DNA from: a virus
Direction: 5' to 3' (one strand)
Length of the DNA: 64,000 bases
Virus record (IMG/VR): IMGVR_UViG_3300035152_000026
Coordinates: 86,002 to 150,001 of that record
Shown: positions 21,179-54,484 of the stretch, piece after piece
Layout of the letters: each line of letters begins with the position of its first letter
Position numbering within the stretch: position 1 is the stretch's first letter
Position numbers and translations under genes: made by a program
The notes under the pieces: generated by a model
The model's database searches: none
What the model was told of the DNA's origin: nothing
The model's input: only the letters and a program-made list of their open reading frames with translations

Positions 21179-21251
21179 ACACCCGTAGCTCGAAGGCCGA
21201 GCGTGCAGTCTGTGGAGCTGCAAGGTGGGGGTTCGATTCCCTCCGGGTGTA
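21179..21251 (+). tRNA. isolated tRNA-like gene with an ambiguous anticodon arm (9-nt loop, or 6-bp stem with GTG)
   Basis: Acceptor ACACCCG/CGGGTGT, D-arm GCTC/GAGC, T-arm GGGGG-TTCGATT-CCCTC (identical to the T-arm of tRNA-Thr at 54409). The anticodon region is TGCAG-TCTGTGGAG-CTGCA. Confidence 0.45.
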
Positions 21252-21262
21252 CCGGAGGATCG

Positions 21263-27627: not shown

Positions 27628-28500
27628 CTACTGCTGTCGCAGCACGTTTCGATGTGAAGTGATGAGCAAACAAGCGACTTTGCCACGTTTCTTCGCGTCG
27701 CAATTCACACGGCGAAGCTCGCCTGTACGCGTAAGGTGTGCCCAACGATAGAGCTTGCGTACTTCAGGTAGATCGTTGTTGGCTGCAACGAATGCGGCAC
27801 CGCGCTTTGCAGCATCCTGTAGCTCGTCGGCGAGAGCTGCATGGTCACCGACGCTAAAACCTTCTTTGAGGTAGTTCGAGAAGACGCCGTAGTACGGCGG
27901 GTCCACGAACAAGAAGTCACCGGCGCCAGCACGGCGAATCACCTGACGGAAGTCCGCAGCGGTAAGCTCAGAGCTACGGATGGCAGCGATGAAAGGATCT
28001 GCTTTCGTCTGCGTGAGAAATGATGGCTTCTGCGACTTCCGAGATCCGTGCGGCACGTTGTACTCGCCCTTCGAGTTCTCGCGGTAGACGCCGTTGAAGC
28101 CAGTCGCGTTCATGTAGAGAAACCAGGCCGCGCGTTGAACCTTCCCTTGGGGATGCTCCGCGCGGATCTTGTAGTACGCGTCTGCGTCCGTCCCACGCCG
28201 TCGATAGTTCTTGAGCGACCAGAGCACAACGTCTCGGTTGCGACACAGTTGCTCGAAGGCATTGATCAGCGGTTCACAAAGATCTGCGAGCAGCATGTTG
28301 GGTAGCCCGAGGTCTGCTGCGACTGCGCCACCTCCAAGGAAGGGCTCGATGTACCGTCCACCAGTGCTTTGCAGATGCGCGTAGGCCACGTCTGAAACAA
28401 TGGGCACGAGCCAGCGTTTGCCGCCTACCCACCGGACAATGGGCTTCGCATGCGCACGCTCGGGCAACTCAGACGGCAACGGCTTCAGCCTGGTCATCAT
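27628..28500 (-). CDS. dam: DNA adenine methyltransferase, Dam/D12 class
   Basis: VRWVGGKRWLVPIV (motif I region), FLGGGAV, and DPPY (motif IV). Confidence 0.8.
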   Translation of the reverse strand: MMTRLKPLPSELPERAHAKPIVRWVGGKRWLVPIVSDVAYAHLQSTGGRYIEPFLGGGAVAADLGLPNMLLADLCEPLINAFEQLCRNRDVVLWSLKNYRRRGTDADAYYKIRAEHPQGKVQRAAWFLYMNATGFNGVYRENSKGEYNVPHGSRKSQKPSFLTQTKADPFIAAIRSSELTAADFRQVIRRAGAGDFLFVDPPYYGVFSNYLKEGFSVGDHAALADELQDAAKRGAAFVAANNDLPEVRKLYRWAHLTRTGELRRVNCDAKKRGKVACLLITSHRNVLRQQ

Positions 28501-30724
28501 ATTGCTTCAGGAAGGGTTCGAGGAGGTAGAGTTCGTCCGTGCGGATCGGTTCGCCGAAGGGGAGGCTACGACGAATCAAGCTAGCGTAGGCCCATTTGTC
28601 GGTCATGCGGCGATCCATGCAAACGATGAATCCGTAGTCTCCTCTTCGACGAAGCAGACGTCCGCATCCTTGTTTGAGCTTCGTGATCATCCAGGGGTAG
28701 TACCGTTGCTTGAAGTAGACGTCCTGCGGCAGTCGCCTCTGGATTGCCTTGAGTACGACGTCTGGGTAGGGAAAGGGCAACTTGTGGATGATGATCGCCT
28801 TCGGGCCCGGTACGTCGATGCCTGTCCAGAAGCTGTCAACTCCCATCAGTATCGATTGAGGATCTTCGCGGAACCACTGCGCGAGCTGCGGACGCGGTGC
28901 ATCACCCTGCTTGAAAACGTTGCGCTCACCCTGATTCGCGAGTTTGGCATGCAACCAATCGAGGTCTGTTTTTGCCGTGAACAGACAAAGGATTCGACCA
29001 GACCAGAAATCGAAGATTTCTTCGTAGACCGGCAACGTAGCTTCGTTGAACGCTTCCCGGTTTTTGCTCGCCGGTACGATCTCCTCTTCGCTCATCACCA
29101 CTAGGCGTGTGTTGGCATGGAAGTCGAACGGCGACTCAGCGATGTACGTCATCGCATCGGATATACCCAACTCGCTCCGCACCAAGTCGAAGCTTCCTGC
29201 CGCTGTCAGCGTGGCTGACGTCAACGTAAGTGACTGCGTAAGCGGGCGAACCGATGATCGGAATACGTCGGCGACGTCCAGGTAGCGCCCTTCAACACGC
29301 GTTGGATGATCTTTGCTGACCTCGATCCAGTAGACCTTGTCGGCGCTCGGCTCACGGAAGACCTCATGAACGTCAGTAGTCAACGCCACGATTCGCCGTG
29401 TAGCTACCATTGCCTTGTTATATGTTTCGTAATCCTTTGAGCGCTCTGCATCAGCCGCGATGGACGAAACCTGATCTCCGATGGTTTCCAGCACGTTCAA
29501 CGTGTACTCGACGTCTACTGTGTTGGGGCGATGAATGTATTGCCACGCACGATACTCCATCGTGTGGTAGTAGTCCTCGATGGCCGCTATGAGTTGCTGA
29601 CCGCTCTGGACAAAACGCGTCGTTTGCCTATCGGAGAAGGCCAGACTGTGTTTGAGCAACTCAGCGATACGCCTAAAACGCGCGTAAGAGATTCGTATAC
29701 CGAAAAACTCACGTGCGATGCGTGCGGCCTCATGAGCTTCGTCGAGAACTAGATTGTCGATCTGCGGCAAGATGCCCTGGGATGCGCTCCAACCGCAGAT
29801 CTTCGCGTGTGCGTAGAGCACATGGTAGTTGGTGACGATGATCTGAGCTTGCTGCGCTGCTGTGCGATGATTGTTGGCCCAACACTTCCCTTCTCGCGCA
29901 AAGCTACAGCCGTTGCCAAGGCATTCGCCTTCGCCTGCGGACAGCAAGTGCCATACACCGTCTTCCGACGCGGGCGCTACTACGTCGTCGGGGAAGCTCT
30001 CACGGTCGCCGGTCGGCGTCACTTGCCCCCACGCTAGCCCCGCCTCGACCCGCTTAACCTGTTCGCTCGTCAAACCGAACATCTGACCGAATCTAGGACC
30101 CCACACACTTCGTGCAGCATCCGTTCTGGTTGCCTTCTCAGGACAGTAGAAGTTGCTACGGCCCTTCAAGAGAGCAAAGGTGAAGTCTCCTGGTAATGCG
30201 GTCGCGAGTGCTGGAAGGTCCTTCTCTATGAGCTGCGATTGCAGCGCGATATTGGCCGTGACGATGACCGTACGTTTCCCTTCCTGCTGTGCGCGTTCAA
30301 TGGCTGGCACGGCATAGGCGAAGCCCTTCCCGGAGCCACAGGGTGCTTCTGTGAGCAACACGCACTCTTGCTCCATCGCCGCACGCACCTTGTGTGAGAG
30401 CGCGACCTGCCCATCACGTACTTCGTAATCGTCAGGCGCTTGACGGGCCAGATAGCCACCGCGGCAGAATGTTTCGTCGATCAGATTCATGTCATTGCCG
30501 TTCCGCGCGTAGGGTGAGCAATGCTGCCATGTCAGGCGGCGGCTCTCTCGGTATGTGTCGCGAAGCGCAAATACGGAGATACGCACTGTTGGTGTTGTCA
30601 AGGGAGTGAAACCCGGCATGGATAAGCGTTGGAGCATCAACGCTTTGCCAGCTCGCAGCGAGCGCCAGGTAGGCAGCGTGCACGACGCAGTCAGGTGCGT
30701 CGGGACGCAACCCGAGGACGGCAT
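28469..30724 (-). CDS. dinG: ATP-dependent helicase, DinG/XPD (Rad3) family with an Fe-S cluster domain
   Basis: APCGSGKGFAY (Walker A), four-Cys cluster (FYCPEK...CLGNGCSF...GKCW), LVLDEAHE (DEAH box), and a C-terminal helicase domain. Confidence 0.75.
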   Translation of the reverse strand: MPSSGCVPTHLTASCTLPTWRSLRAGKALMLQRLSMPGFTPLTTPTVRISVFALRDTYRESRRLTWQHCSPYARNGNDMNLIDETFCRGGYLARQAPDDYEVRDGQVALSHKVRAAMEQECVLLTEAPCGSGKGFAYAVPAIERAQQEGKRTVIVTANIALQSQLIEKDLPALATALPGDFTFALLKGRSNFYCPEKATRTDAARSVWGPRFGQMFGLTSEQVKRVEAGLAWGQVTPTGDRESFPDDVVAPASEDGVWHLLSAGEGECLGNGCSFAREGKCWANNHRTAAQQAQIIVTNYHVLYAHAKICGWSASQGILPQIDNLVLDEAHEAARIAREFFGIRISYARFRRIAELLKHSLAFSDRQTTRFVQSGQQLIAAIEDYYHTMEYRAWQYIHRPNTVDVEYTLNVLETIGDQVSSIAADAERSKDYETYNKAMVATRRIVALTTDVHEVFREPSADKVYWIEVSKDHPTRVEGRYLDVADVFRSSVRPLTQSLTLTSATLTAAGSFDLVRSELGISDAMTYIAESPFDFHANTRLVVMSEEEIVPASKNREAFNEATLPVYEEIFDFWSGRILCLFTAKTDLDWLHAKLANQGERNVFKQGDAPRPQLAQWFREDPQSILMGVDSFWTGIDVPGPKAIIIHKLPFPYPDVVLKAIQRRLPQDVYFKQRYYPWMITKLKQGCGRLLRRRGDYGFIVCMDRRMTDKWAYASLIRRSLPFGEPIRTDELYLLEPFLKQYDDQAEAVAV

Positions 30725-31016
30725 AATCTTGTGCGCTCACCACTACATCTCCAGCGTCAGGCTCCACCAAGATGTCCGCAGCCTGTGCCATTTCTCCTAG
30801 CTGGAACTGCCCGTTTGGGTAGTGTTTGCGCAGCAGCTCCTGCGCTGTATCCCAGTAGGTACGTGATACACACCAGGCACGCTCCTCCGAGACCCAACGA
30901 CGGTTCGGTGGTGGAATGCGCGCTTTCAGCTCGGAGATGAAGACGGGATTGTACGGCGTGTAGAAGACGAACCAAGCGCCGGTGCGATCAAGATCTATGA
31001 AGATGTCCGACATCAT
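30492..31016 (-). CDS. hypothetical protein
   Basis: 174-aa ORF. Confidence 0.4.
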   Translation of the reverse strand: MMSDIFIDLDRTGAWFVFYTPYNPVFISELKARIPPPNRRWVSEERAWCVSRTYWDTAQELLRKHYPNGQFQLGEMAQAADILVEPDAGDVVVSAQDYAVLGLRPDAPDCVVHAAYLALAASWQSVDAPTLIHAGFHSLDNTNSAYLRICASRHIPREPPPDMAALLTLRAERQ

Positions 31017-31636
31017 TCCCCCAATCGTAGATCAGCAAGCACTCGCGCGACATTCTCCTCGACGGGCTGCAATCCGTCGAGGACTTTGATGCTGCGAGCC
31101 CAAAAACTCACCCAGTCAGGAAGCTTGCGGTAGCGAGCCGCAAGCTGATCTATTTTCTCGACTTCCGTCGGCTCGTAGAACGTATTGCGGTTCTTGGTAC
31201 GCTTCGCCTGACGTTCCAGTGCAACCTCAGCGGAGACGTCGATCAGATACGTATGTGTTGGCGGCGCTGGCTCAATCGCTCGCATGGTTGTGTCTACAAC
31301 GTCGTAGCCATGGATCGGCTCTTGGTAGACGAACGACGAGAACATCGTATGACGGTCGGAGACAACCATGACACCCTTTGCGCGCATCGCTTCTACGCGA
31401 GGTTCAAGATCGGCCAGCTCGGCTGCGAAGAGCCACAGCATCGCCTTCGGCTCGAAGACAACACGACCGGAGAACACCTCGTGGATGAGTTGACCAGCTT
31501 GGGAGACGCTACCAGGCTGTCGTAGATGCGCGACTGCGCCGCCGCGGTTTCTGATTGCAGCTACGACCGCTGTTGAGATCGTGGTCTTGCCGCAGCCATT
31601 GATGCCCTCGAAGACGATGTAGGGAGTAGCAGTCAT
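31013..31636 (-). CDS. tmk: thymidylate (dTMP) kinase
   Basis: N-terminal IVFEGINGCGKTT P-loop, typical of Tmk. 207 aa. The ATGA overlap with the downstream gene suggests a coupled operon. Confidence 0.75.
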   Translation of the reverse strand: MTATPYIVFEGINGCGKTTISTAVVAAIRNRGGAVAHLRQPGSVSQAGQLIHEVFSGRVVFEPKAMLWLFAAELADLEPRVEAMRAKGVMVVSDRHTMFSSFVYQEPIHGYDVVDTTMRAIEPAPPTHTYLIDVSAEVALERQAKRTKNRNTFYEPTEVEKIDQLAARYRKLPDWVSFWARSIKVLDGLQPVEENVARVLADLRLGE

Positions 31637-31986
31637 GGTAACGTTCTTTTAGCACGTGGGTGTGACCACCCTGCTCGACGCCGCAAACGAGCCTCCCTGA
31701 CTAGCTCAGCGTTTCGATGCACTTCAGCTTCCGCTACGATACGGGTAGCGCCAGCCTTGTGATCAGACTGCGGATTTGGTCCGATGAGGCTGACGAAGTC
31801 GGGCAACGAATCCGCAGCGACAAGCGTCGCAGTGTAGGAGTCCAACACGTAAGCCTTGACTTCCCCGACACACGTCACCCAGCCGACCACGTTCCGCAAT
31901 CGTGGCTGCGTGGCGTCGTGGTCCTCATAGATCGCGAAGTAGCCCGAAGCTGCGGTACAGAAAGTCATTTGCGCAGGTTTAGACAT
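31633..31986 (-). CDS. hypothetical protein
   Basis: 117-aa ORF overlapping its neighbours by 4-8 nt. Confidence 0.4.
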   Translation of the reverse strand: MSKPAQMTFCTAASGYFAIYEDHDATQPRLRNVVGWVTCVGEVKAYVLDSYTATLVAADSLPDFVSLIGPNPQSDHKAGATRIVAEAEVHRNAELVREARLRRRAGWSHPRAKRTLP

Positions 31987-34900
31987 CTGCCCAGCTCCGG
32001 CCTTTCGCAGGGTCTACCGAGAAGTGAATCGTGACGCCGTTATGTGTGTGAGTCTGCTCGAAGCAGTCTTTGACGTCAGTCATCAAGCGGTCGCCGTCAG
32101 CCTCGTCGCACTCGAAAACGATGGCGTCGTGGATCTGGATGATCGGGTCAGCGTTGGAGTATTCGTTGCGTAGCTTTGGCATCAAACGGAGGAGCCCAGT
32201 GGCCATGATGTCAGCTCCAGTCGACTGAACCGGGAAGTTGTACACGTCGTTCATGTCAGCGTTGCCCAGAGGGAAACACCGTCGCCGACCGTAGATTGCC
32301 GACCGCAGCTCGTGCGGTGGCTGGGCAACGTCTCGCAGAAGCTTCTGATGCCACGCCGTAACGCCGGGCATCCGCGCGGTCATCAACGCGACCATCCGCG
32401 CGATGTCAGCCTGCTTTACGTCCGGGTAGTCCTTGACCACGTTCTTCCAGAGCGTGTCGATCGACCCTCCGTAGAATGCCCCATACTCGGGCCGCTTGAC
32501 CGTATCGCGGAGAACCTTGCGGCGCTCATAAGGTAACTCGTCGAAGTTGGGCCAAACGATGCGTGCGAACTCGCTGTGGATATCCTTCCCGTCGTTGAAG
32601 ATCGCGCACAGGAATGGATCGCCGGAAAGAAGTGCGATGATTCGTGCTTCTAGCTGCGCGAAGTCGAAGCCAACAAGGATCCGTCCAAGGCGTGCTTCAA
32701 ACTGTTTGCGGAGATTTGGGCGCCCCTTCTTCGCGTCAGCTTTCGGCACGTTCTGGCAGACTGGATCTTCAGCACTCCATCGGCCTGTGATCCGATGGAC
32801 ATTCCACCGCGGATGCACGCGACTGTTCGCGTCTGCATAGCCGTACTTGACGATGTTGCCCTGTTCGTCATATCGATCAAAGAGCGCGTAGACGAAGGTA
32901 GAGAACAGTTTCTGATTCTCGCGGTAGTCCAACAGGCTACGTACTTCGGGGATGTGCGCGAAGCTTTCCAGGATCTCTTTCTTCGTGGACGTCGAACCCT
33001 TCTCGGTCAGGAAGTAGAGCGGCACTCCACGAGCCTTTAGATAACCAACGATGTGATCCGAGGAGCCAACGTTCCACTCCCACGTAGCTTTATCGATGGA
33101 ATCGAGCAGCTCTTGCAGGCGTACCTTTTGTCGCTCCCGATAGTCTTCCGGATCTGGCTCTTTACCTTTTGGGTTACGTGCGAACTTCGCTTGCTCGGCT
33201 GCAATGCCAACCCATAGCTCTTCCTGGATCTCAGGCCGGGCAGCGTCGTCCTCAACGATCTTACGGAGCGCTTCGTTTTCCTTGTCGCTACGCCACGCGT
33301 AGAGTGCTTGGATGGCTGGGTGCTTGTCCGCGTGATCTTTGAGCCACGCCTTCGTGATGCTGGCCGCACCCTTTTTGGTCAGGGGCACATCAAGCCCGTG
33401 GACCTTCAACCAACCAGCAAGATGCGCCGACGAATTGATTTGCCACTTCCAAGCGCCTCTGTCTGCGGCGATCCGAATTTCGTCCAAGCGAACCTGTTGT
33501 CGGGCCTCGTAGCGTTCGGGGTCCTGTTTGGCCGCAGTCCCTTTGCGAACACGCTTGGCTTGCTCTGCCGCGATGCGATCAAGCAGCTTGTCGCGGATCT
33601 CAGGGTTGTTAGCCTTCTCTTCGATTTCTGCACGCGCCCGCTGCATGTTCTGCCAGAACTGATCGTAGAGCTGTTGATTCACCTCCTGTGAAACCGGGAT
33701 GCCCGCGTCGTACATCCATTCCGCGGCTTCTGCGCACAGAAGATCAATCTCGTAGCACTTCGCAGACTGTGTGCGCGCGATGGCGATATCGAGGGGCTCG
33801 TCGAGGCGTGCGGTAACTAGTGTGTCCTTGGCGTTATAGATTACGAGGTTCTCAACCGTGTCTTTGCCTTCACGGAACTCCGATTTCCACGGCGTGATCG
33901 CGAAGTACTGCGTAGCCGCGCGTTGCAGGTTGTGCGAAAGGCCAGGAAAGGCTGCGTGGTGTTTGAGCAACGTGTCATCGACTGGACCGTGTACGGGCAT
34001 TCCATGCCGTTTCAAAACACCACGGTCATATATCGAGTTGTGGAACACGACACGAACAAGCGGATCGGCCATAAGCGCAGCCATGAGGCGCTTGGCCATC
34101 GGTGTGACGATGTTCCATGCTATCGAAAGGCCCCACTTTGGGGTAGCGAAGCCGATGGCGGTCAACTTTGCGTTGATGGGCTGTAGTGCAGAATGCTGTT
34201 GCTCGTTGTCTACGTAGGTCTCGGTGTCGCAGGCTACCATGCGCTCTCTGCGAGCATCTTGCACCATCCGACGCATAAGCATCTCGGCGCGTCTGGCGTC
34301 AGCGTACTCGACGACGATGTCCTCCTCGCGGAAGACGATATCGCGTCCGGCAGCGATGGCCTTCACCTTCGCTGCGTCGTACATCAGATTCCAGAAAGCA
34401 ATGTCTGGCGAGTGCGCGCCGCCAATTCCGGCGCCCCCGCGGAGGATTGCCGCAGGGTGAATCGTTGGGATGACTGCGCGGTAGCCTGAACCGTCCGCGT
34501 TGACCTGATGATAGGAGCCCGCCAACGCCTGGATCGAAGTGTTGCGCCCGAGGAATGCGCGAGTTGCCACAGCACCGAGGGCGAGCACAGGAAGGCCTGG
34601 GCGCTCAACCATCTCTGCGGTAAAACGTGGCTCGCAGCACTTGCGGGCCTTTTCTTTCAAGTTGTCGTCAGCCTCTGGTGGCGGTCGGCACAACGTAACG
34701 TTAGACACCCACAAGCGGCGCCGATCTTGCCCAACGGCTGTGAGTGCTTTGTTGACCAACTGCCCGCTAGCGCCAACGAACGGACGGCCTAAAGCAGCTT
34801 CGTGCTGACCCGGACCTTCACCAATGACAATCCATTCCGGCGTCGCTGACCCCTCCCCAACAACAGGTTGGTTAGGTTGTCTATTTCTGGCTAGTGGACA

Positions 34901-34993
34901 ATCTTCACACAGCGCGCCCTCGATGCGCCCACGAATCATCGGTGCAGGTCCTGCACGTAGAACAGGACTCTGTCCTTGCGGACGTAACCGCAT
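31979..34993 (-). CDS. polA: DNA polymerase I-family (family A) polymerase with an N-terminal family-4 uracil-DNA glycosylase-like domain (UDG-PolA fusion)
   Basis: N-terminus: GEGPGQHEAALGRPFVGASGQLVNKAL...HPAAILR (UDG family 4 motifs). C-terminus: DFAQLEARI (motif A), RRKVLRD...YGAFYG (motif B), QIHDAIVFE (motif C). 1004 aa. Confidence 0.85.
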   Translation of the reverse strand: MRLRPQGQSPVLRAGPAPMIRGRIEGALCEDCPLARNRQPNQPVVGEGSATPEWIVIGEGPGQHEAALGRPFVGASGQLVNKALTAVGQDRRRLWVSNVTLCRPPPEADDNLKEKARKCCEPRFTAEMVERPGLPVLALGAVATRAFLGRNTSIQALAGSYHQVNADGSGYRAVIPTIHPAAILRGGAGIGGAHSPDIAFWNLMYDAAKVKAIAAGRDIVFREEDIVVEYADARRAEMLMRRMVQDARRERMVACDTETYVDNEQQHSALQPINAKLTAIGFATPKWGLSIAWNIVTPMAKRLMAALMADPLVRVVFHNSIYDRGVLKRHGMPVHGPVDDTLLKHHAAFPGLSHNLQRAATQYFAITPWKSEFREGKDTVENLVIYNAKDTLVTARLDEPLDIAIARTQSAKCYEIDLLCAEAAEWMYDAGIPVSQEVNQQLYDQFWQNMQRARAEIEEKANNPEIRDKLLDRIAAEQAKRVRKGTAAKQDPERYEARQQVRLDEIRIAADRGAWKWQINSSAHLAGWLKVHGLDVPLTKKGAASITKAWLKDHADKHPAIQALYAWRSDKENEALRKIVEDDAARPEIQEELWVGIAAEQAKFARNPKGKEPDPEDYRERQKVRLQELLDSIDKATWEWNVGSSDHIVGYLKARGVPLYFLTEKGSTSTKKEILESFAHIPEVRSLLDYRENQKLFSTFVYALFDRYDEQGNIVKYGYADANSRVHPRWNVHRITGRWSAEDPVCQNVPKADAKKGRPNLRKQFEARLGRILVGFDFAQLEARIIALLSGDPFLCAIFNDGKDIHSEFARIVWPNFDELPYERRKVLRDTVKRPEYGAFYGGSIDTLWKNVVKDYPDVKQADIARMVALMTARMPGVTAWHQKLLRDVAQPPHELRSAIYGRRRCFPLGNADMNDVYNFPVQSTGADIMATGLLRLMPKLRNEYSNADPIIQIHDAIVFECDEADGDRLMTDVKDCFEQTHTHNGVTIHFSVDPAKGRSWADV

Positions 34994-34996
34994 TGA

Positions 34997-35563
34997 TCAT
35001 GCCCAGCTCGTCGGGCGTGTCTCCGCCAATGTATCGATCAGGAAATCGCGGCCGTCAGCGTCCGCTAGCAACGGACTGTTGCTTCGGACGTATCCACCTG
35101 GCGGCCGTTTGGTTTTACGTTCCTTGGTAGGCGGCAACGTGACGCTGATGATCTGTTCGCGGAGGAGAAGTGTCTTGAGTGCGCGGTAAACTGCTCGCGC
35201 ATTCACCTGACCGTAGTCTTCGAGGACATCGCTGTACAGGTCCTGGAATGGCTTGCAGTAACGTACGGGAATGTGGTCGTAGATGACCTCGCACAACGTC
35301 TCCCCGTGACGTTCACGGCAATGCGGGTACGCCGCGTCGTAGAGCGGGTCCTCGGCACCCTGAAAATCGATAGGGTGTGCTGCATGAATGTCAACCCGCG
35401 GACAACGATCGTCGCGACAGATCCGAACACCTCCGTAAAATTCGTCGAGTTCAACAACCGCCGCACGCTGGGCGCGCGCTGCGATCACATTGTCATAGCG
35501 CTCCTGTGAGCGTGACTTTGAACGCGCTCGCTTCTTTCGCGAGCATGACTTCGACCGTTTCAT
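34997..35563 (-). CDS. hypothetical protein sharing a Cys/His motif (GV.ICRD..CP...IHAAHPI) with ORF 37107..37439; possible HNH-like or zinc-binding module
   Basis: VELDEFYGGVRICRDDRCPRVDIHAAHPI here aligns with VEEGVEICRDEACPIIEIHAAHPI in the paralog. The N-terminus is basic. Confidence 0.4.
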   Translation of the reverse strand: MKRSKSCSRKKRARSKSRSQERYDNVIAARAQRAAVVELDEFYGGVRICRDDRCPRVDIHAAHPIDFQGAEDPLYDAAYPHCRERHGETLCEVIYDHIPVRYCKPFQDLYSDVLEDYGQVNARAVYRALKTLLLREQIISVTLPPTKERKTKRPPGGYVRSNSPLLADADGRDFLIDTLAETRPTSWA

Positions 35564-35653: not shown

Positions 35654-36241
35654 CTACCGACGGACCTGTGGGCCCTGGTTGTTGCCTGGCCGACGCTGCG
35701 CCACAGGGCGTCCCTGCGGCGCCTGACGCTGCTGTACGGGCGCCTGACGCTGCTGTGGCGCTGGTGCCTCCTCGACCATGAGGGGCTCCTCGCCCACGAT
35801 CCTGACAGCCTCCTTGGTCACGTTCTGTCCGGTGCGCGAGTCGAAGTCCGTGTAGGGCTCGATGATGGCCTCGGCGCGCATCTGCGTACCGACCATGCTC
35901 GCGGGCGCGAACCGGTGGTTCTCGTCGGTCTCCACCCCGAGGGCGTCGATCAGGTTCTTCATGCGGCGACGCGCTCCATCGTTGTCGGGCAGAATCGCGT
36001 AGCTCTGTCGCGTGGTGCGGCCCTGCATCGGACCTTCCGAGATCACCCGGTAGGTCAAGCGTAGGGTAGGGTTTCCCTTCCCGCTCACGCCCATCGCAGC
36101 CTCGGTAACCTCCAGGTCATAGAAGCCTGGATCGATTCGGCTGCTCCGGCCGTCCCACCCCTCCAGGTTGGGATCGCCGAGACCCATGTCGATGTACTCG
36201 ACGTAGCTTGAGTCGTTGCTGTTGTCGTTCTGTTGCGGCAT
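35654..36241 (-). CDS. DUF669-like phage protein (ssDNA-binding-like partner of Sak4), Gln/Pro-rich C-terminus
   Basis: Lies immediately downstream of the AAA_24 ATPase, as in the Sak4-DUF669 module. The C-terminal tail is APAPQQRQAPVQQRQAPQGRP. Confidence 0.5.
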   Translation of the reverse strand: MPQQNDNSNDSSYVEYIDMGLGDPNLEGWDGRSSRIDPGFYDLEVTEAAMGVSGKGNPTLRLTYRVISEGPMQGRTTRQSYAILPDNDGARRRMKNLIDALGVETDENHRFAPASMVGTQMRAEAIIEPYTDFDSRTGQNVTKEAVRIVGEEPLMVEEAPAPQQRQAPVQQRQAPQGRPVAQRRPGNNQGPQVRR

Positions 36242-36268
36242 ATGGTTCTCCTATGGACTGATTGGTTG

Positions 36269-37102
36269 TTACTGCTGTTGCGTCACGGCGGCACTAGCGC
36301 CGACCGGTTGGCCTGTAGGGGCTTGCATGGGCATTGGAGTGAGGTTCAACGCCTCGGCGAAGGTTCGATAGGTACAGTCCGGCACGAAGATTTCGTTGTC
36401 GGGATCCTCTTCAGTGGTAGTCCAGTACCCTAGCGGGTCAGGCAACGCACCTTCGTCACGACCACCTGCGGCGTACTGTTGCCAACGCTTCGTACGGATC
36501 TCGAACTGTAGTGAGCCGTCCTGTAACGTGTAAGCCCGATGATAGAGAATGTAGTCAGTGCCCGCAGCGAACTTCATCGCCTGCTGACCGCTGATCATGG
36601 GTGTGCCGATGGGGTTGTCGCTGTCGGGTGTCTTCTCTAGGCAGACCCACAACACGTTCACTGGCAAGTTGTGAATCTGCACTCGCAGCGAGCGTAAGTT
36701 GGCACCGAGTGAACCGTACACTCGCCGCATGTCAGGCATGCTGCCGTTTTTCGACATTGCTCGCGTGAGCGTGTCGAGAAGCAAATCGTTGTAGAAGGTC
36801 AGTGAATCGACGACGAGTGTTTGAACCTCACCAGCACGAATCAACGAATCTGCATCGCCGATCGCTTCCATCATGTCGGCGATCCGCTCGATGGCCCAAA
36901 CGCGTGGACGGCGCTCTGGTTCCCAAAGCGCTCCGGGGTCCATATTGATGACCGTCGTCCAGCCACCTTCACTAGCCTCGGATAGGAACAACGGTCTGGG
37001 CCAACTTGCCGCCCAGCGCGTTTTCCCGGAGCGCATCGCACCGTAAGACAGACACGTGATACGTTGCGCCTGGATCGGATCGTCCAAATCGATCTTACGC
37101 AT
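36269..37102 (-). CDS. AAA_24 family ATPase (Sak4-like RecA-fold recombination protein)
   Basis: Walker A (SYGAMRSGKT), Walker B (LVVDSL), 277 aa. Typical phage Sak4 context. Confidence 0.65.
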   Translation of the reverse strand: MRKIDLDDPIQAQRITCLSYGAMRSGKTRWAASWPRPLFLSEASEGGWTTVINMDPGALWEPERRPRVWAIERIADMMEAIGDADSLIRAGEVQTLVVDSLTFYNDLLLDTLTRAMSKNGSMPDMRRVYGSLGANLRSLRVQIHNLPVNVLWVCLEKTPDSDNPIGTPMISGQQAMKFAAGTDYILYHRAYTLQDGSLQFEIRTKRWQQYAAGGRDEGALPDPLGYWTTTEEDPDNEIFVPDCTYRTFAEALNLTPMPMQAPTGQPVGASAAVTQQQ

Positions 37103-37106
37103 TCGG

Positions 37107-37439
37107 TTATTTCCCTTTCTTCGTGGGTGTGCGTATGAAGGAGTTGCGTCGATCCCAGCCGCAAGCTAGACACCGTGCGCCTTGACCTACCGGTATCGAT
37201 GCAAAACACTGCGGGCAGGTTTTTGGTGCACGTCCTCGCATAGACGGTATGATTGGGTGCGCAGCGTGTATCTCTATAATGGGGCAGGCTTCGTCCCGGC
37301 AAATCTCCACACCCTCTTCGACTTCGTCGATTGACAGTGCAATCAGCTGCTTGGTAGTGCCCATGTCTCGCCCCCCACAGCGATACGTTGATCCAACCGC
37401 GCGATGTCTGCGTCGGCTAGTACGAGACGGTATTCCCAC
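37107..37439 (-). CDS. small Cys/His-motif protein, paralog of 34997..35563
   Basis: Shared motif plus a C-terminal CPQC. Confidence 0.4.
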   Translation of the reverse strand: MGIPSRTSRRRHRAVGSTYRCGGRDMGTTKQLIALSIDEVEEGVEICRDEACPIIEIHAAHPIIPSMRGRAPKTCPQCFASIPVGQGARCLACGWDRRNSFIRTPTKKGK

Positions 37440-37667
37440 AGTCCTTGGGTACGGCGCCGAGCGTCTACCTGATGGCCGCCAAATTTGGGTTTACGAAAAT
37501 CTCGTAGTCGCGCGCTGATAGCTGCTTCACTACCACCTACGACACGATAGATCTCGTTCAACGTACGCCATTGGCCGTCGCGCATGAGAGCCAACACACG
37601 GCCGAGTTGTCCCGTCAAACGAATTTGATCGAGCGCGGGATCGTAGGTGTGTCCGCCGAACGGCACG

Positions 37668-39053
37668 CTAGCCCTCCCGATGCGCGCAGTGATCCCACTG
37701 GCTGCACATGCCGTAGCGGCTGACGCAATTAGCACGCGCTCGGGGGAAGATACCGCCGGCCATCATGAAGAGCCGCATCCCTTGCCACATCCGCAAGTCG
37801 TTCGCGTGCTGCTTTATTTGCCAGCGCTGCGGAACGACAAGCGTACGGTGGAATTGTTGTTGGCGCTGCTTACCAATGATGTTCATCATCACGCCGGTCA
37901 GCTTGCCGAATTTGCGGGTCAGCTTGAGACGCTGCCAAAGCATGATCTGGCCAATGACCTCGCCGTCGTTCTGCCAACCATCGAGTGTGGCAGTATCGAA
38001 CCTGCCAGTCGTCTTGTGTTCGACCACATACGTTCCAGCAGGAAAACGCGAGTCCGCCTTTTCAACTTTGGCAATCAGGTCGTAGCGAGCTGACTCTTTT
38101 GTCTCTGAGTCCACCACGTGGTACTCGACTGCAAGCGGTGTGATGAAGTCTTGCTCGTAGAAGAGCGCGTAGCCTGCCCAAAGGCGCCACGCTTCCATCA
38201 GAACTGCGGCATCACAACCCGCGTCGAGCAACGCCTTGTTCAGAATCTCAGGCGTGAGCGGGTAGGCTGGATCAATGAATTGCTGGTAGTACACCGCGAG
38301 GAAGGCATGAACCGCTGAACCGATCTCGATATAGTTTGGTGGACGTTCCTCTACGTACCGCAAGCCGTCGATGTATAGCCGCTTGAAGAGGTAGGGGCAG
38401 CGCTGGTACGTCGAGAAGCTTGACCAACCCAGGTCGCCCGACGCGCCACCCAACCGCGGCACCTCGTACGCCTTGAAAACCTGATGTAGGCCTTTGTCCA
38501 GCGGCGTGATGGTGAGATCACGTTCGGTAGGCAAGAGCAACGTGCCATCTTCCGCGGTAGCCGCACCTGCCGGCAATATCGACGGCACTATGTCGGCTTT
38601 CTTTGTCCGCCGCTTCCTGGGTTTGGGCGGCGGTGGCGCCGAAGGAAGCACCGGTAGTTCGTCTTCGTAGTCTTCGTCTTCGTCTACGTCTGAAATCCCG
38701 TCTGCGATCTCAGACGCAACGTCAGGTGAGTCAGTCGCGTCCGCGATAACGTCCTCGGGAGGTACCGGTGCTGCATCAACGACCGGTTGCGTGACCTCAT
38801 AGATGAAACCATCATCGGCAATGAAGTACTGACGATCGAGGCTTTCTCCCGCTGCATCTACTAGGATAGCAATGCAGGGTGCGTCGGCGTCGTGCTCGAA
38901 GATGCCTTCAGCACCGGTCGCGATGCAACGAGTACCGCAGACAACGCAGTAAACGTCGTCCTGCGTCGTCTTGATCGCGTCCGCGATCCCGTCAATACCA
39001 TAGTTTTGGGTGTCAGGTGCCGTTGTAGGCGTCATCCCGCCCTGTCTTGCCAT
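37668..39053 (-). CDS. PD-(D/E)XK nuclease, Cas4/RecB-like exonuclease with Fe-S Cys cluster and an extra acidic N-terminal domain
   Basis: Four-Cys pattern: N-proximal QRCPYLFKR plus C-terminal CVSRYGMCSQWDHC. Adjacent to the Sak4/DUF669 genes (classic phage recombination module). Confidence 0.6.
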   Translation of the reverse strand: MARQGGMTPTTAPDTQNYGIDGIADAIKTTQDDVYCVVCGTRCIATGAEGIFEHDADAPCIAILVDAAGESLDRQYFIADDGFIYEVTQPVVDAAPVPPEDVIADATDSPDVASEIADGISDVDEDEDYEDELPVLPSAPPPPKPRKRRTKKADIVPSILPAGAATAEDGTLLLPTERDLTITPLDKGLHQVFKAYEVPRLGGASGDLGWSSFSTYQRCPYLFKRLYIDGLRYVEERPPNYIEIGSAVHAFLAVYYQQFIDPAYPLTPEILNKALLDAGCDAAVLMEAWRLWAGYALFYEQDFITPLAVEYHVVDSETKESARYDLIAKVEKADSRFPAGTYVVEHKTTGRFDTATLDGWQNDGEVIGQIMLWQRLKLTRKFGKLTGVMMNIIGKQRQQQFHRTLVVPQRWQIKQHANDLRMWQGMRLFMMAGGIFPRARANCVSRYGMCSQWDHCAHREG

Positions 39054-39143
39054 TCGATCCCCCGATCAAATGAGCGAATGCCCGGTTGCTGTGAAACGCG
39101 TCCGGTTTACTTATCACTTCGGTGTGACAATCTGCAATCGGTT

Positions 39144-40742
39144 TCACCCGACATCTTCTGCGCCCGCAAGAAATGCTTCCATAAGACGCTGCATATCGGG
39201 TTCGACGGGATCGATTTGGAAGGCCTGAGCAATGACGTCAATCGCACTATCCGCCGCAGGGACATTGAGGCTGTTGGCCCTCGCGCACTTCTCTTGCAAG
39301 GCGGTTACCAATCCGCGATCTACAGGATGATCGACGACCAGATACGTCACGGACATCGGTTTATCCGGGGAGAACGTGCGCATTTCGGCTTGCGCAACGG
39401 TCGCGGGTGTGAAGTCCACCTCGGCAAAGATCGCTTGCCGCGCGTGCGAGAGATCAATGGCAACCTGACCGACGGGGATCGTGCAGACGAGCGCCGCGAT
39501 GGCGTTCTTCTTCCAGTCTTCTATTGTCTTTTCGCGGCTATCCACAGAATCGCCACCAGTAGCCGCGAACGCAGGATAGCCCTTCTTCGAGATCGCAGCC
39601 GCGATCTTCCGTGCAACCGTTCGATGCCAGGTCCATACGACGACGGGCTCCCCGTTCGCGAGCACCCGGTCAGCAACATCGACAGCGAGAGGAGCCTTCA
39701 GCCGGCCCAGCAGCTTACGTAACCTCGCCTGACTGCCGATTTTCGTCGGCTTTTTGGTGACGTCTCGCGCGGCCTCGACGGCGAGATCCAGCTCGAATAG
39801 CTGGCGCTCTGTCACGTCAGCGACCTCCACAGATCGTTCGATGGGCGGAAGATCACTACGAACGTCTTCCCACGTGCGTCGAATCATCACTTCTGCAATA
39901 CGAGCGCGAAACTCCTCGACATTGCTTACGCCGTTGTACTTGGTCCCGTAGGCCGTAAGCTCCGGCCCGGCGTACCGCTGCCGGAAGGTGTAGTGAGTGC
40001 CCCACCCGCCGGGATTCAAGCAAGAGAGGATCGCCCAGAGCCCTCCAGGACGGTTCCACAGGGGCGTGCCAGTTGCTGCGATGACTTTCTCTGCCCGAGA
40101 CGCGAGCAGCTGCGCAGCCTGTGTCCGCTTCGCCCGTGGATTACTCAGTAGATGCGCTTCGTCGAAGACCAGCGTGCCAGGACGGCGCAGTGCAAAGTTC
40201 TGCCAGGCAGTGAGGATGTCATAGTGTGCAAAGATACACTCTGCTTCGCGCAGCTGATCGGGACTGTACGTGCGGCCACGGAGCACGATAGGTTCGATGT
40301 CAGGCCAGCGGAGCTTCATCCACCGAGTCCACACCTCGCGTGCGGCCAACGGTCCTACGATCAGCAACGGCCCGCGTGCGGGATCGTGAGCCATAACAGA
40401 TGACAATGTCTTGCCGAGTCTCATCATGTCAGCCAGGAGTACGCCTCGACGCGGTTCGATGTACTCCCGCGCTTCGTGTTGGTACGGCCGTAGCGTGAAA
40501 CCCAACTGCGCCGTCTCGTTGTCCAACGCAGCACGTGCCTGATCGACTTTCGGCACTGTCAATAGGCGTTGTGCACTTTCATGCCCAAGCTGCGCAAGCA
40601 GTGGTAGATGCGTGCGGTGAACTCCGACGTTGTCCCTGCCGAACAGCTGTATTCCAGGCGCTTCTGAGATCTGTACAGCCCACTCCCGCGGAATCAAATA
40701 CCAATCACGGCGCCGTGCGTACGGCACGATCTCGGTGACCAT
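39144..40742 (-). CDS. SNF2-family helicase (SNF2_N plus helicase C domains)
   Basis: LRPYQ (motif Q/I region), GKT Walker A, LVFDEAHLLSN (DEAH box), and a C-terminal helicase domain. Confidence 0.75.
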   Translation of the reverse strand: MVTEIVPYARRRDWYLIPREWAVQISEAPGIQLFGRDNVGVHRTHLPLLAQLGHESAQRLLTVPKVDQARAALDNETAQLGFTLRPYQHEAREYIEPRRGVLLADMMRLGKTLSSVMAHDPARGPLLIVGPLAAREVWTRWMKLRWPDIEPIVLRGRTYSPDQLREAECIFAHYDILTAWQNFALRRPGTLVFDEAHLLSNPRAKRTQAAQLLASRAEKVIAATGTPLWNRPGGLWAILSCLNPGGWGTHYTFRQRYAGPELTAYGTKYNGVSNVEEFRARIAEVMIRRTWEDVRSDLPPIERSVEVADVTERQLFELDLAVEAARDVTKKPTKIGSQARLRKLLGRLKAPLAVDVADRVLANGEPVVVWTWHRTVARKIAAAISKKGYPAFAATGGDSVDSREKTIEDWKKNAIAALVCTIPVGQVAIDLSHARQAIFAEVDFTPATVAQAEMRTFSPDKPMSVTYLVVDHPVDRGLVTALQEKCARANSLNVPAADSAIDVIAQAFQIDPVEPDMQRLMEAFLAGAEDVG

Positions 40743-41094: not shown

Positions 41095-42717
41095 ATGGCA
41101 TCGAGTGGAAAGGTAATTCAAGGCAGTTTTGGACAGCAGGGAACGAGTAGCGCAGCACCGCCGAACACGCCGCGAACCGTTACGCAGACACGCTACGCGA
41201 TCTACATGATCCGGCATGATCACCGGGTCAAGACGCGTGACGCAGCGACCCGCCTGATCTACAACTACATTTGGGATACCGAGATCCGCGACAGTCAGGG
41301 GAGCGTGATCTTGTCAGTCCCGGAGAAGCGCTGCTATCTCCAATCAGGGCTCACCCACCAGCTCTACGAGATCAGCCTCCGCGATGACGATTTTTTGGCG
41401 TATCTCTGGTACCGCTACGGGCTGCTGGAAACCGAAGCGCCGACGAAACACACGGTCGCAGCGCTCAAGGCCTACTGCCGAGTGTGCGGCCGTTTACGCG
41501 ACGTGCGCCGCTTCACGTTCTTCGACACGACCTCCAACACGCTCTACTTGAGCTGCTACAACGGACGTTGCTGGCAGCTCGATGGTGAGAATTTTGCCAA
41601 GGTCAACAACGGTACTGGCACTGGAGTTTTCCTAGACGACGACGAGGGTATACCCGTCGTTGACGAGCCTCTCATCGGGCACCACGGCAAACTCCTACCT
41701 ACCCTGATTGACGGAGTCCAGTTCGTGGACAGTACACAGAGTGGCATGACGCGAGATCAGCAGCGACTCGCGCTTGCCGTCTGGTTGTTCGCCGTCGCGT
41801 TTCCTGACCTTATGCCCTCGAAGCCCATGCTCCTCTGTGAGGGGGAGCGAGGATCCGGCAAAAGCGTGGCTGTGCAGCTCATTCAACGCGTGATCCACGG
41901 TGAGCAAAAGACGCATCAGGTCAGTAAAAATGACGAGAAGGACTTCGGCGTGAAGATCCTCCGCTCGCCGATTTGTCTGCTCGACAACATGGACAACTTC
42001 GTGGATTGGCTCCAGGACACGCTGGCAGCATTCACGACGGGCGAGGGCTGGACACGCCGCAAGCTATTCACGGACGATCAAGAAGTCAAAGTACAGCCAC
42101 AAGGATTCATCGCGATCACGACGCGCAACCCAATCACGTTCAAGCGTGATGACATCGCCGACCGCTGTGTGATTCTGCGCCTCGAACGCCGCGAGGACAA
42201 CCAGGCACTCTCCCTGCTCTTTCGCCGCGTCTTCGATGAGCGCGCGGTCTTGTTCGGGGAGTGGCTCTGGTACCTGAACGAGATCGTCAAAGAGATTCGT
42301 GCTGGCACGTTGACCAAACATGCTCAAAAGAGCCGTCACCGCCTAGCAGACTTCGCCGCGCTTGCTCACGTCATCGGCAAGGTCATTGGCGCCAGCTATG
42401 ACGAGGTCAGCGAAATGCTCACAGCGATGCAGGCTGAGCGTGACGTCCTCGTCACCGAGGGCGACCCGTTGGTAGACCTCCTGGACCGCTGGCTTGAAAA
42501 CACCAACAACGTCGGCAAGGCAGTGACGGCGGCTGAGCTGCACCGCGATCTCTCCAACATCGCAAAGCAGTTCAATCGTAGTTTCTACAAGTCGCCCGCG
42601 ACATTGGCTCAGAAACTGCGCGTCCATACACTGCAAAAACAGTTCGACGTTCGGGTTGTTGGTCAGCGCGGCAACGCGAAGCTCTACGAATTCCGCCGTC
42701 TCAAAGAGGATCGTTGA
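41095..42717 (+). CDS. P-loop NTPase, probable primase-associated/SF3-type helicase (P4-primase C-terminal or VirE-like)
   Basis: CEGERGSGKSVAVQL (Walker A), CLLDNMD (Walker B-like), ITTRNP (sensor). 540 aa. Confidence 0.45.
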   Translation: MASSGKVIQGSFGQQGTSSAAPPNTPRTVTQTRYAIYMIRHDHRVKTRDAATRLIYNYIWDTEIRDSQGSVILSVPEKRCYLQSGLTHQLYEISLRDDDFLAYLWYRYGLLETEAPTKHTVAALKAYCRVCGRLRDVRRFTFFDTTSNTLYLSCYNGRCWQLDGENFAKVNNGTGTGVFLDDDEGIPVVDEPLIGHHGKLLPTLIDGVQFVDSTQSGMTRDQQRLALAVWLFAVAFPDLMPSKPMLLCEGERGSGKSVAVQLIQRVIHGEQKTHQVSKNDEKDFGVKILRSPICLLDNMDNFVDWLQDTLAAFTTGEGWTRRKLFTDDQEVKVQPQGFIAITTRNPITFKRDDIADRCVILRLERREDNQALSLLFRRVFDERAVLFGEWLWYLNEIVKEIRAGTLTKHAQKSRHRLADFAALAHVIGKVIGASYDEVSEMLTAMQAERDVLVTEGDPLVDLLDRWLENTNNVGKAVTAAELHRDLSNIAKQFNRSFYKSPATLAQKLRVHTLQKQFDVRVVGQRGNAKLYEFRRLKEDR

Positions 42718-54480: not shown

Positions 54481-54484
54481 CTGA

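Follow-up and report, generated by a model that had tools for sequence, protein, structure and literature searches.

A single uninterrupted gene in the 64,000-nucleotide stretch of viral DNA that we analysed (the window) encodes a uracil-DNA glycosylase (UDG) of family 4, a 3′-5′ proofreading exonuclease and a family-A DNA polymerase in one chain of 1004 amino acids. By analogy with related fusions, the protein is likely to be a replicative polymerase in which one polypeptide carries three active sites (UDG, exonuclease and polymerase) and which would purge uracil during replication. The UDG-PolA design is already known, and has been partly solved, from other phages; the protein adds a new branch to this family.

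The gene occupies positions 31979..34993 on the minus strand, as do all features below unless stated otherwise. Its reading frame runs through 1004 codons from an ATG at 34993 to a stop codon at 31979-31981 and holds three Pfam domains (UDG, exonuclease and PolA), in agreement with the original prediction that a UDG is fused to PolA in one frame. This ATG lies 4 nt past the stop of the upstream ORF, and a second in-frame ATG is found at codon 19. Residues 1-27 form an N-terminal leader (34913..34993), of which residues 1-13 are predicted to be disordered (pLDDT <50). We considered the possibility that adjacent UDG and polymerase genes had been merged through a fault in assembly or sequencing, or through a misread frame. 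Indeed, the public gene call for an identical protein is only 893 aa long, begins at an internal TTG (codon 112) and carries no UDG Pfam annotation. However, the DNA is open from the first ATG, and a JGI contig from another sample (L001) is 100% identical across 3615 nt, upstream region included. Identity to this independent metagenome contig excludes the frameshift between two genes that the original prediction had named as its possible undoing. Furthermore, a start at codon 112 would halve the UDG fold, both domains are found in a single chain in 91 of 102 database homologues, and they pack together in the AF2 model of the whole protein (pLDDT 92.4, pTM 0.83), so that an artefact is hardly credible. 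The 893-aa call is merely a choice of start site, the TTG falling within the UDG fold. As this call lacks the first 111 codons, automated annotation conceals the fusion, and surveys that rely on such calls will undercount it.

The UDG domain spans residues 28-192 (34418..34912). A domain search of the N-terminus, which had been proposed as a check, showed it to be UDG-like. Pfam UDG PF03167 matches residues 46-186 (E 1.3e-17, 64.7 bits, cut-off 24.3), the top match of a PDB sequence search is the family-4 UDG of T. thermophilus (1ui0, E 6.8e-25), with that of T. maritima (1l9g) also recovered, and NCBIfam TIGR00758 UDG_fam4 is matched with an E value of 2.9e-27. The score of this last match (95.5 bits) is under NCBI's curated cut-off of 125.3 because the fused domain has diverged, and does not contradict homology. 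Both family-4 motifs lie where they had been predicted: motif A, GEGPG, at residues 58-62 (34808..34822) and motif B, HPAAILR, at residues 179-185 (34439..34459). Motif A of family-4 enzymes (UDGa) is GE[A/G]PG (PMC10359453), and HPAAILR conforms to the UDGa motif B pattern HP[S/A]xx[L/V]R with its catalytic histidine. Conservation of the catalytic residues, another point on which the prediction was to be judged, is complete: E59, P61, G62, H179 and P180 are invariant in an alignment of 55 sequences (A1), with conservation of at least 90% for F72 and N98 of the pocket. Most homologues share the exact string HPAAILR, even at overall identities as low as ~40%, and the catalytic residues labelled in the phiLo structure (E53, P55 and H178) align to E59, P61 and H179.

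Four cysteines are presumed to be the ligands of a [4Fe-4S] cluster: the first pair forms a CxxC (C29 and C32; 34898..34909), the third is C102 (34688-34690) and the fourth lies at C119/C120 (34634-34639). In an alignment of the clade (A2), C102 and C120 are invariant while C29 and C32 are at least 90% conserved, and the four align with cysteine positions of the Tth (1ui0) and Tma (1l9g) enzymes. In family-4 UDGs four cysteines bind a [4Fe-4S] cluster, and the UDG described here probably contains Fe-S too.

As judged from these alignments, the UDG active site is under strong purifying selection. Its catalytic motifs are near-invariant in relatives that are only ~40% identical, which makes it very probable that the domain is catalytically active and not a dead clamp. 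The original prediction had offered a non-catalytic uracil-sensing clamp as an alternative, a description that fits the N4-like enzymes, which have lost the motifs, but not a protein in which the catalytic residues are kept. There is precedent in N4-like cluster 17, where the domain has been retained though its catalytic residues were lost (PMC10201439), for a dead UDG-like domain with a role in structure, processivity or uracil sensing. Nevertheless, both motifs are missing in N4 and all are present here in the same alignment, they are invariant clade-wide, and the fold superposes on solved, active family-4 UDGs at 2.0 Å, making it very unlikely that the domain works in the N4-like manner. 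Even less probable is a UdgX-type enzyme, in which excision of uracil is followed by covalent cross-linking of the domain to the abasic site, turning it into a trap instead of a turnover enzyme. UdgX motif A is GEQPG (PMC10359453), whereas the GEGPG found here is of the family-4 kind. Moreover, the alignment to UdgX variants is gapped exactly at the KRRIH R-loop, Tth UDGa aligns through N-x-x-x-C-R-P-P without an R-loop insert, and histidine is absent at the R-loop position.

A helical linker (residues 193-240; 34274..34417), 83% identical to that of the homologue P0002, connects the UDG to the exonuclease. It is modelled as a helix (195-214), a strand (226-229) and the start of a further helix (233-250) with pLDDT >90, except for the less confident loop at the UDG junction (blocks 181-200, pLDDT 72-76). 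The 3′-5′ exonuclease that was to be looked for between the two domains is present at residues 241-399 (33797..34273), without a large insert (Pfam DNA_pol_A_exo1 PF01612 over the same residues, E 2.2e-6, 28 bits, cut-off 23.6). Its motifs are intact (ExoI DTE 256-258, ExoII NSIYD 319-323, ExoIII YNAKD 386-390), with D256, E258, N319, Y386 and D390 invariant and D323 conserved in at least 90% of the sequences of A1. The polymerase domain is complete, as predicted, and all three motifs were found: motif A, DFAQLEAR, at 777-784, motif B, RDTVKRPEYGAFYGG, at 829-843 and motif C, IHDAIVFE, at 954-961. Pfam DNA_pol_A PF00476 matches residues 618-1003 (E 2.6e-51), its last profile position falling on residue 1003 of 1004, and the descending thumb helix, palm and fingers together occupy residues 681-1004 (31982..32953). 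D777/E782, R829/K833/Y837/Y841 and H955/D956 are all present, and the polymerase catalytic residues are invariant in A1. The residue that follows the HD of motif C is Ala where cellular Pol I has Glu; HD[A/S] is also found in phiLo, which is experimentally active, and in N4, SPO1 and StAshley. The protein ends 228 aa past motif A, as does cellular Pol I (224-226), while phiLo continues for 303, and hence it has no C-terminal extension.

The thumb is greatly enlarged in the AF2 model (residues ~436-702). Residues 400-453 (33635..33796), modelled within helices 380-407, 411-430 and 436-461 that rise into the thumb, may be its stem. Beyond them a 104-aa thumb-tip module is present in tandem, copy 1 at residues 454-557 (33323..33634) and copy 2 at residues 577-680 (32954..33265), with 42% identity between them (E 8e-23). 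Copy 2, which holds the start of the Pfam PolA match, is the orthologue of the single module of other members. Copy 1 is a diverged paralogue that obtains a lower score than copy 2 when compared with the one site that single-copy relatives have, and is found only in P0001-P0007, the duplication being limited to the closest relatives. In a HMMER alignment, residue 640 onward corresponds to Taq residue 482 onward. By comparison with the thumb Insert 2 of SP15-like enzymes, the duplicated tip probably adds contacts to duplex DNA that would raise processivity.

The gene lies within a conserved replication module. Immediately upstream, an ORF of 188 aa without family match (34997..35563) stops 4 nt before the polymerase ATG; 6 related loci have a homologue in this place. 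It is followed by the upstream part of a replication and recombination module (35654..40742), which contains a 195-aa protein and, by Pfam, a Sak4-like AAA_24 protein (36269-37102), a PD-(D/E)XK nuclease (37668-39053) and a SNF2 helicase (39144-40742), an order shared by about 25-28 related loci. A primase-like gene on the plus strand (41095..42717; phrog_47 DNA primase, E 8e-7; syntenic in 14 loci) forms the divergently transcribed edge of the module. Downstream, an ORF of 117 aa without family match (31633..31986), also called by JGI, overlaps the polymerase stop by 8 nt and is followed by a thymidylate kinase homologue (31013..31636; PF02223, E 2.4e-22; 14 of 31 related loci have one close to the polymerase), a syntenic DinG/XPD-like helicase (28469..30724; Helicase_C_2, E 2.4e-26) and a D12-class N6-adenine DNA methyltransferase (27628..28500; PF02086, E 2.5e-35; in 19 of the 31 loci). 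The module of primase, SNF2, PD-(D/E)XK, AAA_24, Pol, DinG, Tmk and Dam is conserved in about 30 loci. No other family-A polymerase was detected among the scanned ORFs of the window, which also carries 33 tRNA genes and is part of a contig of at least 150 kb. The source is most likely a large uncultured tailed phage, and the gene its replicative DNA polymerase.

The coupling of uracil excision to replication that had been predicted has been shown experimentally for the related fusions phiLo and YerA41, and would apply to this protein by analogy. Cryo-EM and biochemistry (bioRxiv 10.1101/2025.03.26.645540) show that both excise dU located ahead of the polymerase site in the 5′ template strand. 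In the mechanism that we propose, the polymerase-borne UDG would scan the DNA at a distance of a few nucleotides from where polymerization takes place, in all probability on the single-stranded 5′ template, flip uracil out and excise it, leaving an abasic site. The polymerase would then copy past this site, probably following the A-rule by means of the conserved O-helix tyrosine Y841; alternatively, the abasic site could be passed to recombination or repair factors. As a net result, phage DNA would be cleared of uracil alongside replication without the need for a host UDG or a UDG in trans. Two observations count against this mechanism. The phiLo/YerA41 study ties abasic-site bypass to a C-terminal domain (bioRxiv 10.1101/2025.03.26.645540) that the clade lacks, and neither the 64-kb window, out of a contig of at least 150 kb, nor the ±10-kb flanks of the relatives yielded a PolX, DNA ligase or AP endonuclease. 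Both absences would be in line with a different reaction, hypothesized by Czernecki et al. 2023 (PMC10201439), for which neither PolX, ligase nor the C-terminal domain is needed: the UDG would provide a second mode of editing on the nascent strand, fresh dU being flipped into its pocket upon backtracking and the abasic end trimmed by the 3′-5′ exonuclease. The exonuclease is intact here, and in AF2 models of UDG-PolAs the three active sites are roughly equidistant, 30-35 Å apart (PMC10201439). Still, the sole experimental structures have the 5′ template strand, and not the primer, in the UDG, and we regard nascent-strand editing as improbable.

We also weighed whether the UDG polices a genome in which thymidine is modified (hmU or a hypermodified T), the situation in SPO1, SP-15, YerA41 and Carin-5. 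Pools of dUMP/dUTP are high in phages of this sort, and stray dU must be eliminated to leave the modified base alone; this would refine the purpose of the enzyme and leave the enzyme itself unchanged. The syntenic thymidylate kinase homologue could phosphorylate a modified dUMP. On the other hand, BLAST found no homologues of the SPO1 dUMP hydroxymethylase, dUTPase-like protein or dCMP/dCTP deaminase in the window or the 31 related loci, and no Pfam match to a glycosyltransferase, 5-HMUDK or aGPT-Pplase was obtained among about 40 ORFs of the window (64 of at least 150 kb). Furthermore, the modification enzyme that is conserved in the module is an adenine methylase of the Dam type, and the UDG-PolA of Brevundimonas phage StAshley adjoins deazaguanine genes instead. 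A thymidine-modified genome is therefore doubtful.

The architecture as such had been called unusual, which is overstated: besides the 91 fused homologues mentioned above, UDG-PolA fusions have been described in the lineages of SPO1, SP-10, SP-15, N4, YerA41, phiLo and Carin-5 (PMC10201439; bioRxiv 10.1101/2025.03.26.645540). The protein fits none of the N4-like, SPO1-like and SP15-like subfamilies and belongs to an uncultured clade of about 90 clusters. Distances between polymerase domains, from a rough NJ tree of 394 columns without support values, are at most 0.66 within this clade, against 0.82 to SPO1/JL, 0.84 to cellular Pol I and 0.89 to N4. Among BFVD predicted structures, phage polymerases of 820-1050 aa align over the full length (>1000 columns) with TM scores of 0.58-0.76; several of these we take to be of N4-like or SPO1-like lineages. 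The model superposes poorly on phiLo and YerA41. Together with the pTM of the model, the TM scores suggest a defined domain arrangement; in UDG-PolA fusions generally, the UDG has been described as fixed in place between exonuclease and polymerase (fingers) (PMC10201439).

It is conceivable, though unlikely, that the clade is a fourth, mechanistically distinct UDG-PolA subfamily. This reading jointly supposes a canonical Fe-S family-4 UDG without C-terminal bypass domain and without PolX or ligase partners; resolution of fork abasic sites by the syntenic PD-(D/E)XK nuclease, Sak4-like annealase, SNF2 and DinG-like helicases; and, in the sub-clade of the window, a duplicated thumb tip that acts as a built-in processivity clamp, on thymidine that is possibly unmodified. 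If thymidine is indeed unmodified, large phages would use replication-coupled uracil purging as a general strategy and not as an adaptation to hypermodified DNA. Replicase-fused and apparently active UDGs are by no means confined to the small number of cultured phages with hypermodified T: they also occur across a broad environmental lineage of large phages without visible thymidine-modification genes, which bears on why uracil removal is tied to phage replication. The clade moreover offers natural variants (no C-terminal domain, no exonuclease insert, a doubled thumb tip) for testing what the phiLo/YerA41 mechanism needs.

Comparison with named systems places these features in context. The SPO1-like enzymes of Bacillus phages (SPO1 gp31, JL gp163 and SP-10) share the order UDG, 3′-5′ exonuclease and PolA in a single chain, a UDG that is regarded as active, the absence of a C-terminal extension domain and a motif C with HD[S/A] instead of HDE. 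However, they are just 22-26% identical to our protein and about as distant in the polymerase domain as cellular Pol I. The UDG motifs of SPO1/JL are QENPF/QENPY and HPN.VLK, in contrast to GEGPG and HPAAILR, SPO1 has no CxxC whereas four cysteines are found here, and SPO1/JL have about 60 more residues after motif A (290 versus 228). SPO1-like phages have Firmicutes hosts and hmU genomes.

The SP15-like enzymes (phiLo, PDB 9qhs; YerA41, 9qlh; SP-15, RP13 and Carin-5) provide the sole experimental mechanism for enzymes of this kind. They resemble our protein in their enlarged thumb and, in phiLo, in a canonical family-4 UDG (GEAPG, HPSFVLR and CxxC; 32% identical, catalytic residues aligned). 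They have been described as carrying a helical Insert 1 of ~80-110 aa within the 3′-5′ exonuclease, a helical bundle inserted in the thumb (Insert 2) and a basic beta-loop-beta C-terminal domain of ~80 aa, in phages that co-encode PolX and DNA ligase (bioRxiv 10.1101/2025.03.26.645540). Insert 1 is absent here, the exonuclease having 159 residues for 156 profile positions of PF01612, and so is the C-terminal domain, as seen from the residues that follow motif A. The extra mass of the thumb consists of tandem copies of the tip module that the family itself possesses, and similarity to phiLo was not detectable there.

N4-like enzymes (cluster 17) are alike in their N-terminal UDG fold, exonuclease and PolA, in the HDA of motif C and in a replication neighbourhood with a Sak4-like AAA_24 protein, primase and helicase. 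In contrast, the UDG of N4 has lost both motif A and motif B as well as the cysteines, all of which are kept here; N4 gives no BLAST match in the UDG region and lies at a polymerase-domain distance of 0.89. The UDGa enzymes of Thermus, Thermotoga and Actinomycetota are free-standing repair enzymes of ~200 aa, whereas in our protein such a domain forms the N-terminal part of a replicase. Finally, the poxvirus holoenzyme differs in having a family-B polymerase and a UDG of another family that is bound in trans and non-covalently, so that no homology is implied, but it is analogous in function: a UDG is physically coupled to the replicase and sits in front of the active site on the template, a parallel to UDG-polymerase fusions drawn by Missoury et al. 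(bioRxiv 10.1101/2025.03.26.645540).

The gene at 31979..34993 on the minus strand is an unbroken ORF of 1004 codons, and the overlapping ORFs of the other frames are all short. Pfam places a UDG superfamily domain at residues 46-186 (E 1.3e-17), a Pol I-type 3'-5' exonuclease at residues 241-399 (E 2.2e-6, passing the curated cut-off) and DNA_pol_A at residues 618-1003 (E 2.6e-51). In the PDB, the first 200 residues match family-4 UDGs from Thermus thermophilus (Tth; 1ui0, E 6.8e-25) and Thermotoga maritima (Tma; 1l9g, E 5e-21), and the C-terminal half matches the Taq, Klenow and Bst polymerases; the NCBIfam match is TIGR00758 (UDG family 4, E 2.9e-27). This domain order and these structural matches bear out the original prediction of a UDG fused to a family-A polymerase (PolA), whose quoted peptide strings lie at residues 58-77 and 179-185. 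The exonuclease that was to be looked for between the two is present there.

A frameshift between two separate genes had been named as the finding that would undo this fusion, and none was found. The public database holds an 893-aa protein, P0001, that is 100% identical to the window protein, and its JGI contig (L001), from a different sample, matches the window exactly over 3615 nt, 400 nt upstream included, with the frame continuous. The short JGI call takes as its start an internal TTG at codon 112, midway through the UDG fold. Together, the independent contig and the internal start rule out two genes. Codons 1-111 (34661-34993; loci L001 and L002) are thus dropped in the JGI call, which is why the P0001 entry carries no UDG annotation from Pfam; surveys of UDG-PolAs built on such truncated calls will overlook members. 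The close relative P0002 (82% identity) is called at full length, 1005 aa, with all three domains. Furthermore, the first ATG of the polymerase follows the upstream ORF's stop codon by 4 nt, as is typical of genes with coupled translation.

All three active sites are preserved. Across 55 aligned sequences, the residues that never vary include E59, P61 and G62 (motif A) and H179 and P180 (motif B) of the UDG, D256, E258, N319, Y386 and D390 of the exonuclease, and D777, K833, Y841, H955 and D956 of the polymerase. Conservation is 90% or more at F72 and N98 (UDG), D323 (exonuclease) and E782 (polymerase motif A). The heptapeptide HPAAILR is exact in most homologues, down to about 40% overall identity. 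Cysteines C29, C32, C102 and C119/C120, conserved within the clade, correspond to the four that bind the [4Fe-4S] cluster in family-4 UDGs such as the Tth and Tma enzymes. Residues E53, P55 and H178 of the phiLo enzyme, catalytic according to its cryo-EM study, align with E59, P61 and H179. The original prediction had allowed for a non-catalytic UDG, a reading that does not agree with these intact motifs, unlike those of the degenerate N4-type domain. A covalent trap of the cross-linking UdgX type can be ruled out as well: motif A is GEQPG in UdgX (PMC10359453) and GEGPG here, and the domain aligns with Tth UDGa across N-x-x-x-C-R-P-P, the point at which alignment with UdgX requires insertion of a KRRIH loop, without the extra UdgX residues. 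Because of this alignment and the GEGPG motif, we classify the domain, from its sequence, as a canonical turnover-type family-4 UDG, neither covalent trap nor degenerate. As for the polymerase, its motif C is HDA, whereas that of cellular Pol I is HDE. A crippled polymerase is ruled out by the occurrence of HD[A/S] in phiLo (experimentally active), N4, SPO1 and the Brevundimonas phage StAshley; JL has it too, and it is a trait of these phage polymerases.

The AlphaFold2 model, built on the 55-sequence alignment, has a mean pLDDT of 92.4 and a pTM of 0.83, with disorder only at residues 1-13. Its best matches among predicted viral structures are phage DNA polymerases of 820-1050 aa (TM 0.58-0.76), aligned over more than 1000 columns, which is more than the exonuclease and polymerase alone would cover. 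Within the polymerase, residues 454-557 (copy 1) and 577-680 (copy 2) form a tandem repeat, 42% identical (E 8e-23) at an offset of 123 residues. The Pfam polymerase domain starts within copy 2; residue 640 onward aligns with Taq residue 482 onward, which by the Klentaq domain boundaries lies in the thumb. The model puts the two copies between one long helix that ascends (436-461) and another that descends (682-702), which would place them at the thumb tip. Searched alone against the PDB, copy 1 gave no PolA match and only a marginal one to argininosuccinate synthase (E 0.002); it owes its thumb identity to its similarity to copy 2. Two copies occur only in P0001-P0007, the nearest relatives (58% identity or more), whereas the majority, of about 870 aa, have one. 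Both match the single module of single-copy relatives, copy 2 always with the higher score, and copy 1 is therefore the diverged extra. Between the window protein and P0002 the copies are 76% and 80% identical (82% overall), and the similarity of copy 1 to copy 2 has nearly gone at the DNA level, which argues that the duplication is old and retained and not an assembly artefact.

The polymerase belongs to a replication module in the order primase, SNF2, PD-(D/E)XK, AAA_24, 195-aa protein, (RNR), polymerase, DinG-like, Tmk, Dam. The same order recurs in about 30 related loci, which lie on IMG/VR contigs (the longest 221 kb) and in two MAG records, a Hyphomicrobium (L013) and a Gemmatimonadota chromosome (L014, CP070815.1, 4.7 Mb). 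The latter contains the full module, including a 1427-aa UDG-PolA; this is a prophage, and then a clue to the host, or else a binning or assembly inclusion. In another relative (L011, 21615-22838) an IS605 OrfB/TnpB (Cas12f-like) gene follows the module. About ten homologues of 1200-1570 aa (P0003, P0004, P0006, P0007, P0023, P0029, P0037, P0038, P0065 and P0072) carry inserts within the gene, with intein-splicing, Hint, LAGLIDADG or HNH domains (PF14890, PF13403, PF03161, PF14528 and PF13392). SPO1 gene 31 is likewise interrupted, by an intron with a homing endonuclease; the window gene has no insert of this kind. The exact string HPAAILRGG recurs in free-standing family-4 UDGs from MAGs of Actinomycetota and Acidimicrobiales (L015-L077), which are 35-42% identical to residues 25-188, a likeness that may hint at the cellular source of the domain or at host range.

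The window as a whole is phage-like. It holds 33 tRNA genes, 32 of them in an array on the plus strand (53880-58760; three tRNA-Ala, five tRNA-Leu, three tRNA-Ser and tRNA-Ile(TAT) among them) that small spurious ORFs overlap, and an isolated tRNA-His (21179-21253). Such a dense array is typical of large virulent phages. The window also encodes a class II ribonucleotide reductase, a DnaQ-like exonuclease, a Dam-type methylase, a DinG-like helicase, thymidylate kinase, an AAA_24/Sak4-like protein, a PD-(D/E)XK nuclease, two SNF2 helicases, a primase-like protein, and HNH, NUDIX and CYTH proteins; many ORFs have no family match. The 228-aa ORF adjoining tRNA-His (21479-22165, plus strand) had looked ThyX-like by eye, an assignment dropped for want of any Pfam, NCBIfam or PDB match; its only match is phrog_6721 (function unknown, E 2e-48), a widespread phage protein without assigned role. 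A 510-aa protein (19622-21154, plus strand) has a C-terminal T5orf172/MUG113 (GIY-YIG-like) domain and no match over its N-terminal 420 aa. An 868-aa ORF (45486-48092, plus strand) is kin to eukaryotic major vault protein (MVP), with Pfam MVP_shoulder (E 3e-30), a Vault repeat, a match to solved MVPs over residues 500-805 (E about 5e-19) and an overall length that fits. It was not found in the 10 kb on either side of the relatives' polymerases. Phage-encoded MVPs have one prior report, in gut phages (bioRxiv 10.1101/2023.11.10.566534).

The enzymes of phiLo and YerA41, whose structures have been solved, excise dU from the template at a distance of five nucleotides in front of the polymerase site, and the abasic site is bypassed and then repaired by phage PolX and ligase (Missoury et al. 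2025, bioRxiv 10.1101/2025.03.26.645540). We consider it probable that the gene at 31979..34993 encodes the phage's replicase and that its cis-UDG is active, removing uracil as synthesis proceeds. By analogy with these enzymes, the UDG would scan the template ahead of the polymerase active site; of the original interpretation, the fusion and, on this analogy, the replication-coupled removal of uracil are retained. PolX, ligase and AP endonuclease were not found by BLAST-level probes in the 64-kb window, itself part of a contig at least 150 kb long, or in the relatives' flanks; the search used tblastn with SPO1, N4, SP-15 and StAshley proteins, and about 40 ORFs were scanned against Pfam, PHROG and NCBIfam. 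Their absence, like that of a C-terminal domain, would fit editing of the nascent strand by the UDG (PMC10201439), an alternative that we regard as unlikely beside the template scanning of phiLo and YerA41. Nor were a ThyA-type hydroxymethylase, dUTPase or dCTP/dCMP deaminase found in the same regions at BLAST-level sensitivity, and thymidylate kinase, syntenic with the polymerase, is the sole pointer in the window toward modified thymidine. In StAshley (L008, 2553-8463) a UDG-PolA with intact GESPG and HPAFLMR lies directly downstream of queC, queD and queE (7-deazaguanine synthesis); active UDG-PolAs are thus not restricted to phages that modify thymidine.

The fusion itself is established in the literature, and structure depositions have long titled family-4 UDGs 'phage SPO1 DNA polymerase-related protein'. 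As the domain pair also occurs in 91 of 102 metagenomic homologues, calling the architecture unusual was an overstatement. In N4-like PolAs the N-terminal family-4 UDG is inactive, the SPO1, SP-10 and SP-15 enzymes keep its residues intact, and AF2 models wedge it between exonuclease and polymerase (Czernecki et al. 2023, PMC10201439). Three features, namely Insert 1, Insert 2 and a C-terminal domain, define the SP15-like enzymes (Missoury et al. 2025, bioRxiv 10.1101/2025.03.26.645540), a group extended by a Carin-5 paper. The window protein lacks both their exonuclease insert and their C-terminal domain (motif A is followed by 228 aa here and by 303 aa in phiLo), which rules out SP15-like membership, while its intact UDG motifs rule out the N4-like group, whose UDG is degenerate. 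SPO1-like membership is ruled out too: UDG motif A is QENPF/Y in SPO1/JL and GEGPG here, and in a rough NJ tree without support values the protein does not cluster with SPO1/JL, its polymerase-domain distance being 0.82 to SPO1/JL, 0.84 to cellular Pol I and at most 0.66 within its own clade. Among 50,697 deposited phage genomes no close relative was detected (best matches below 31% identity). Since it falls outside all three definitions and its relatives are metagenomic, we place the protein, on sequence comparison, in an uncharacterised clade inside the known UDG-PolA kind.
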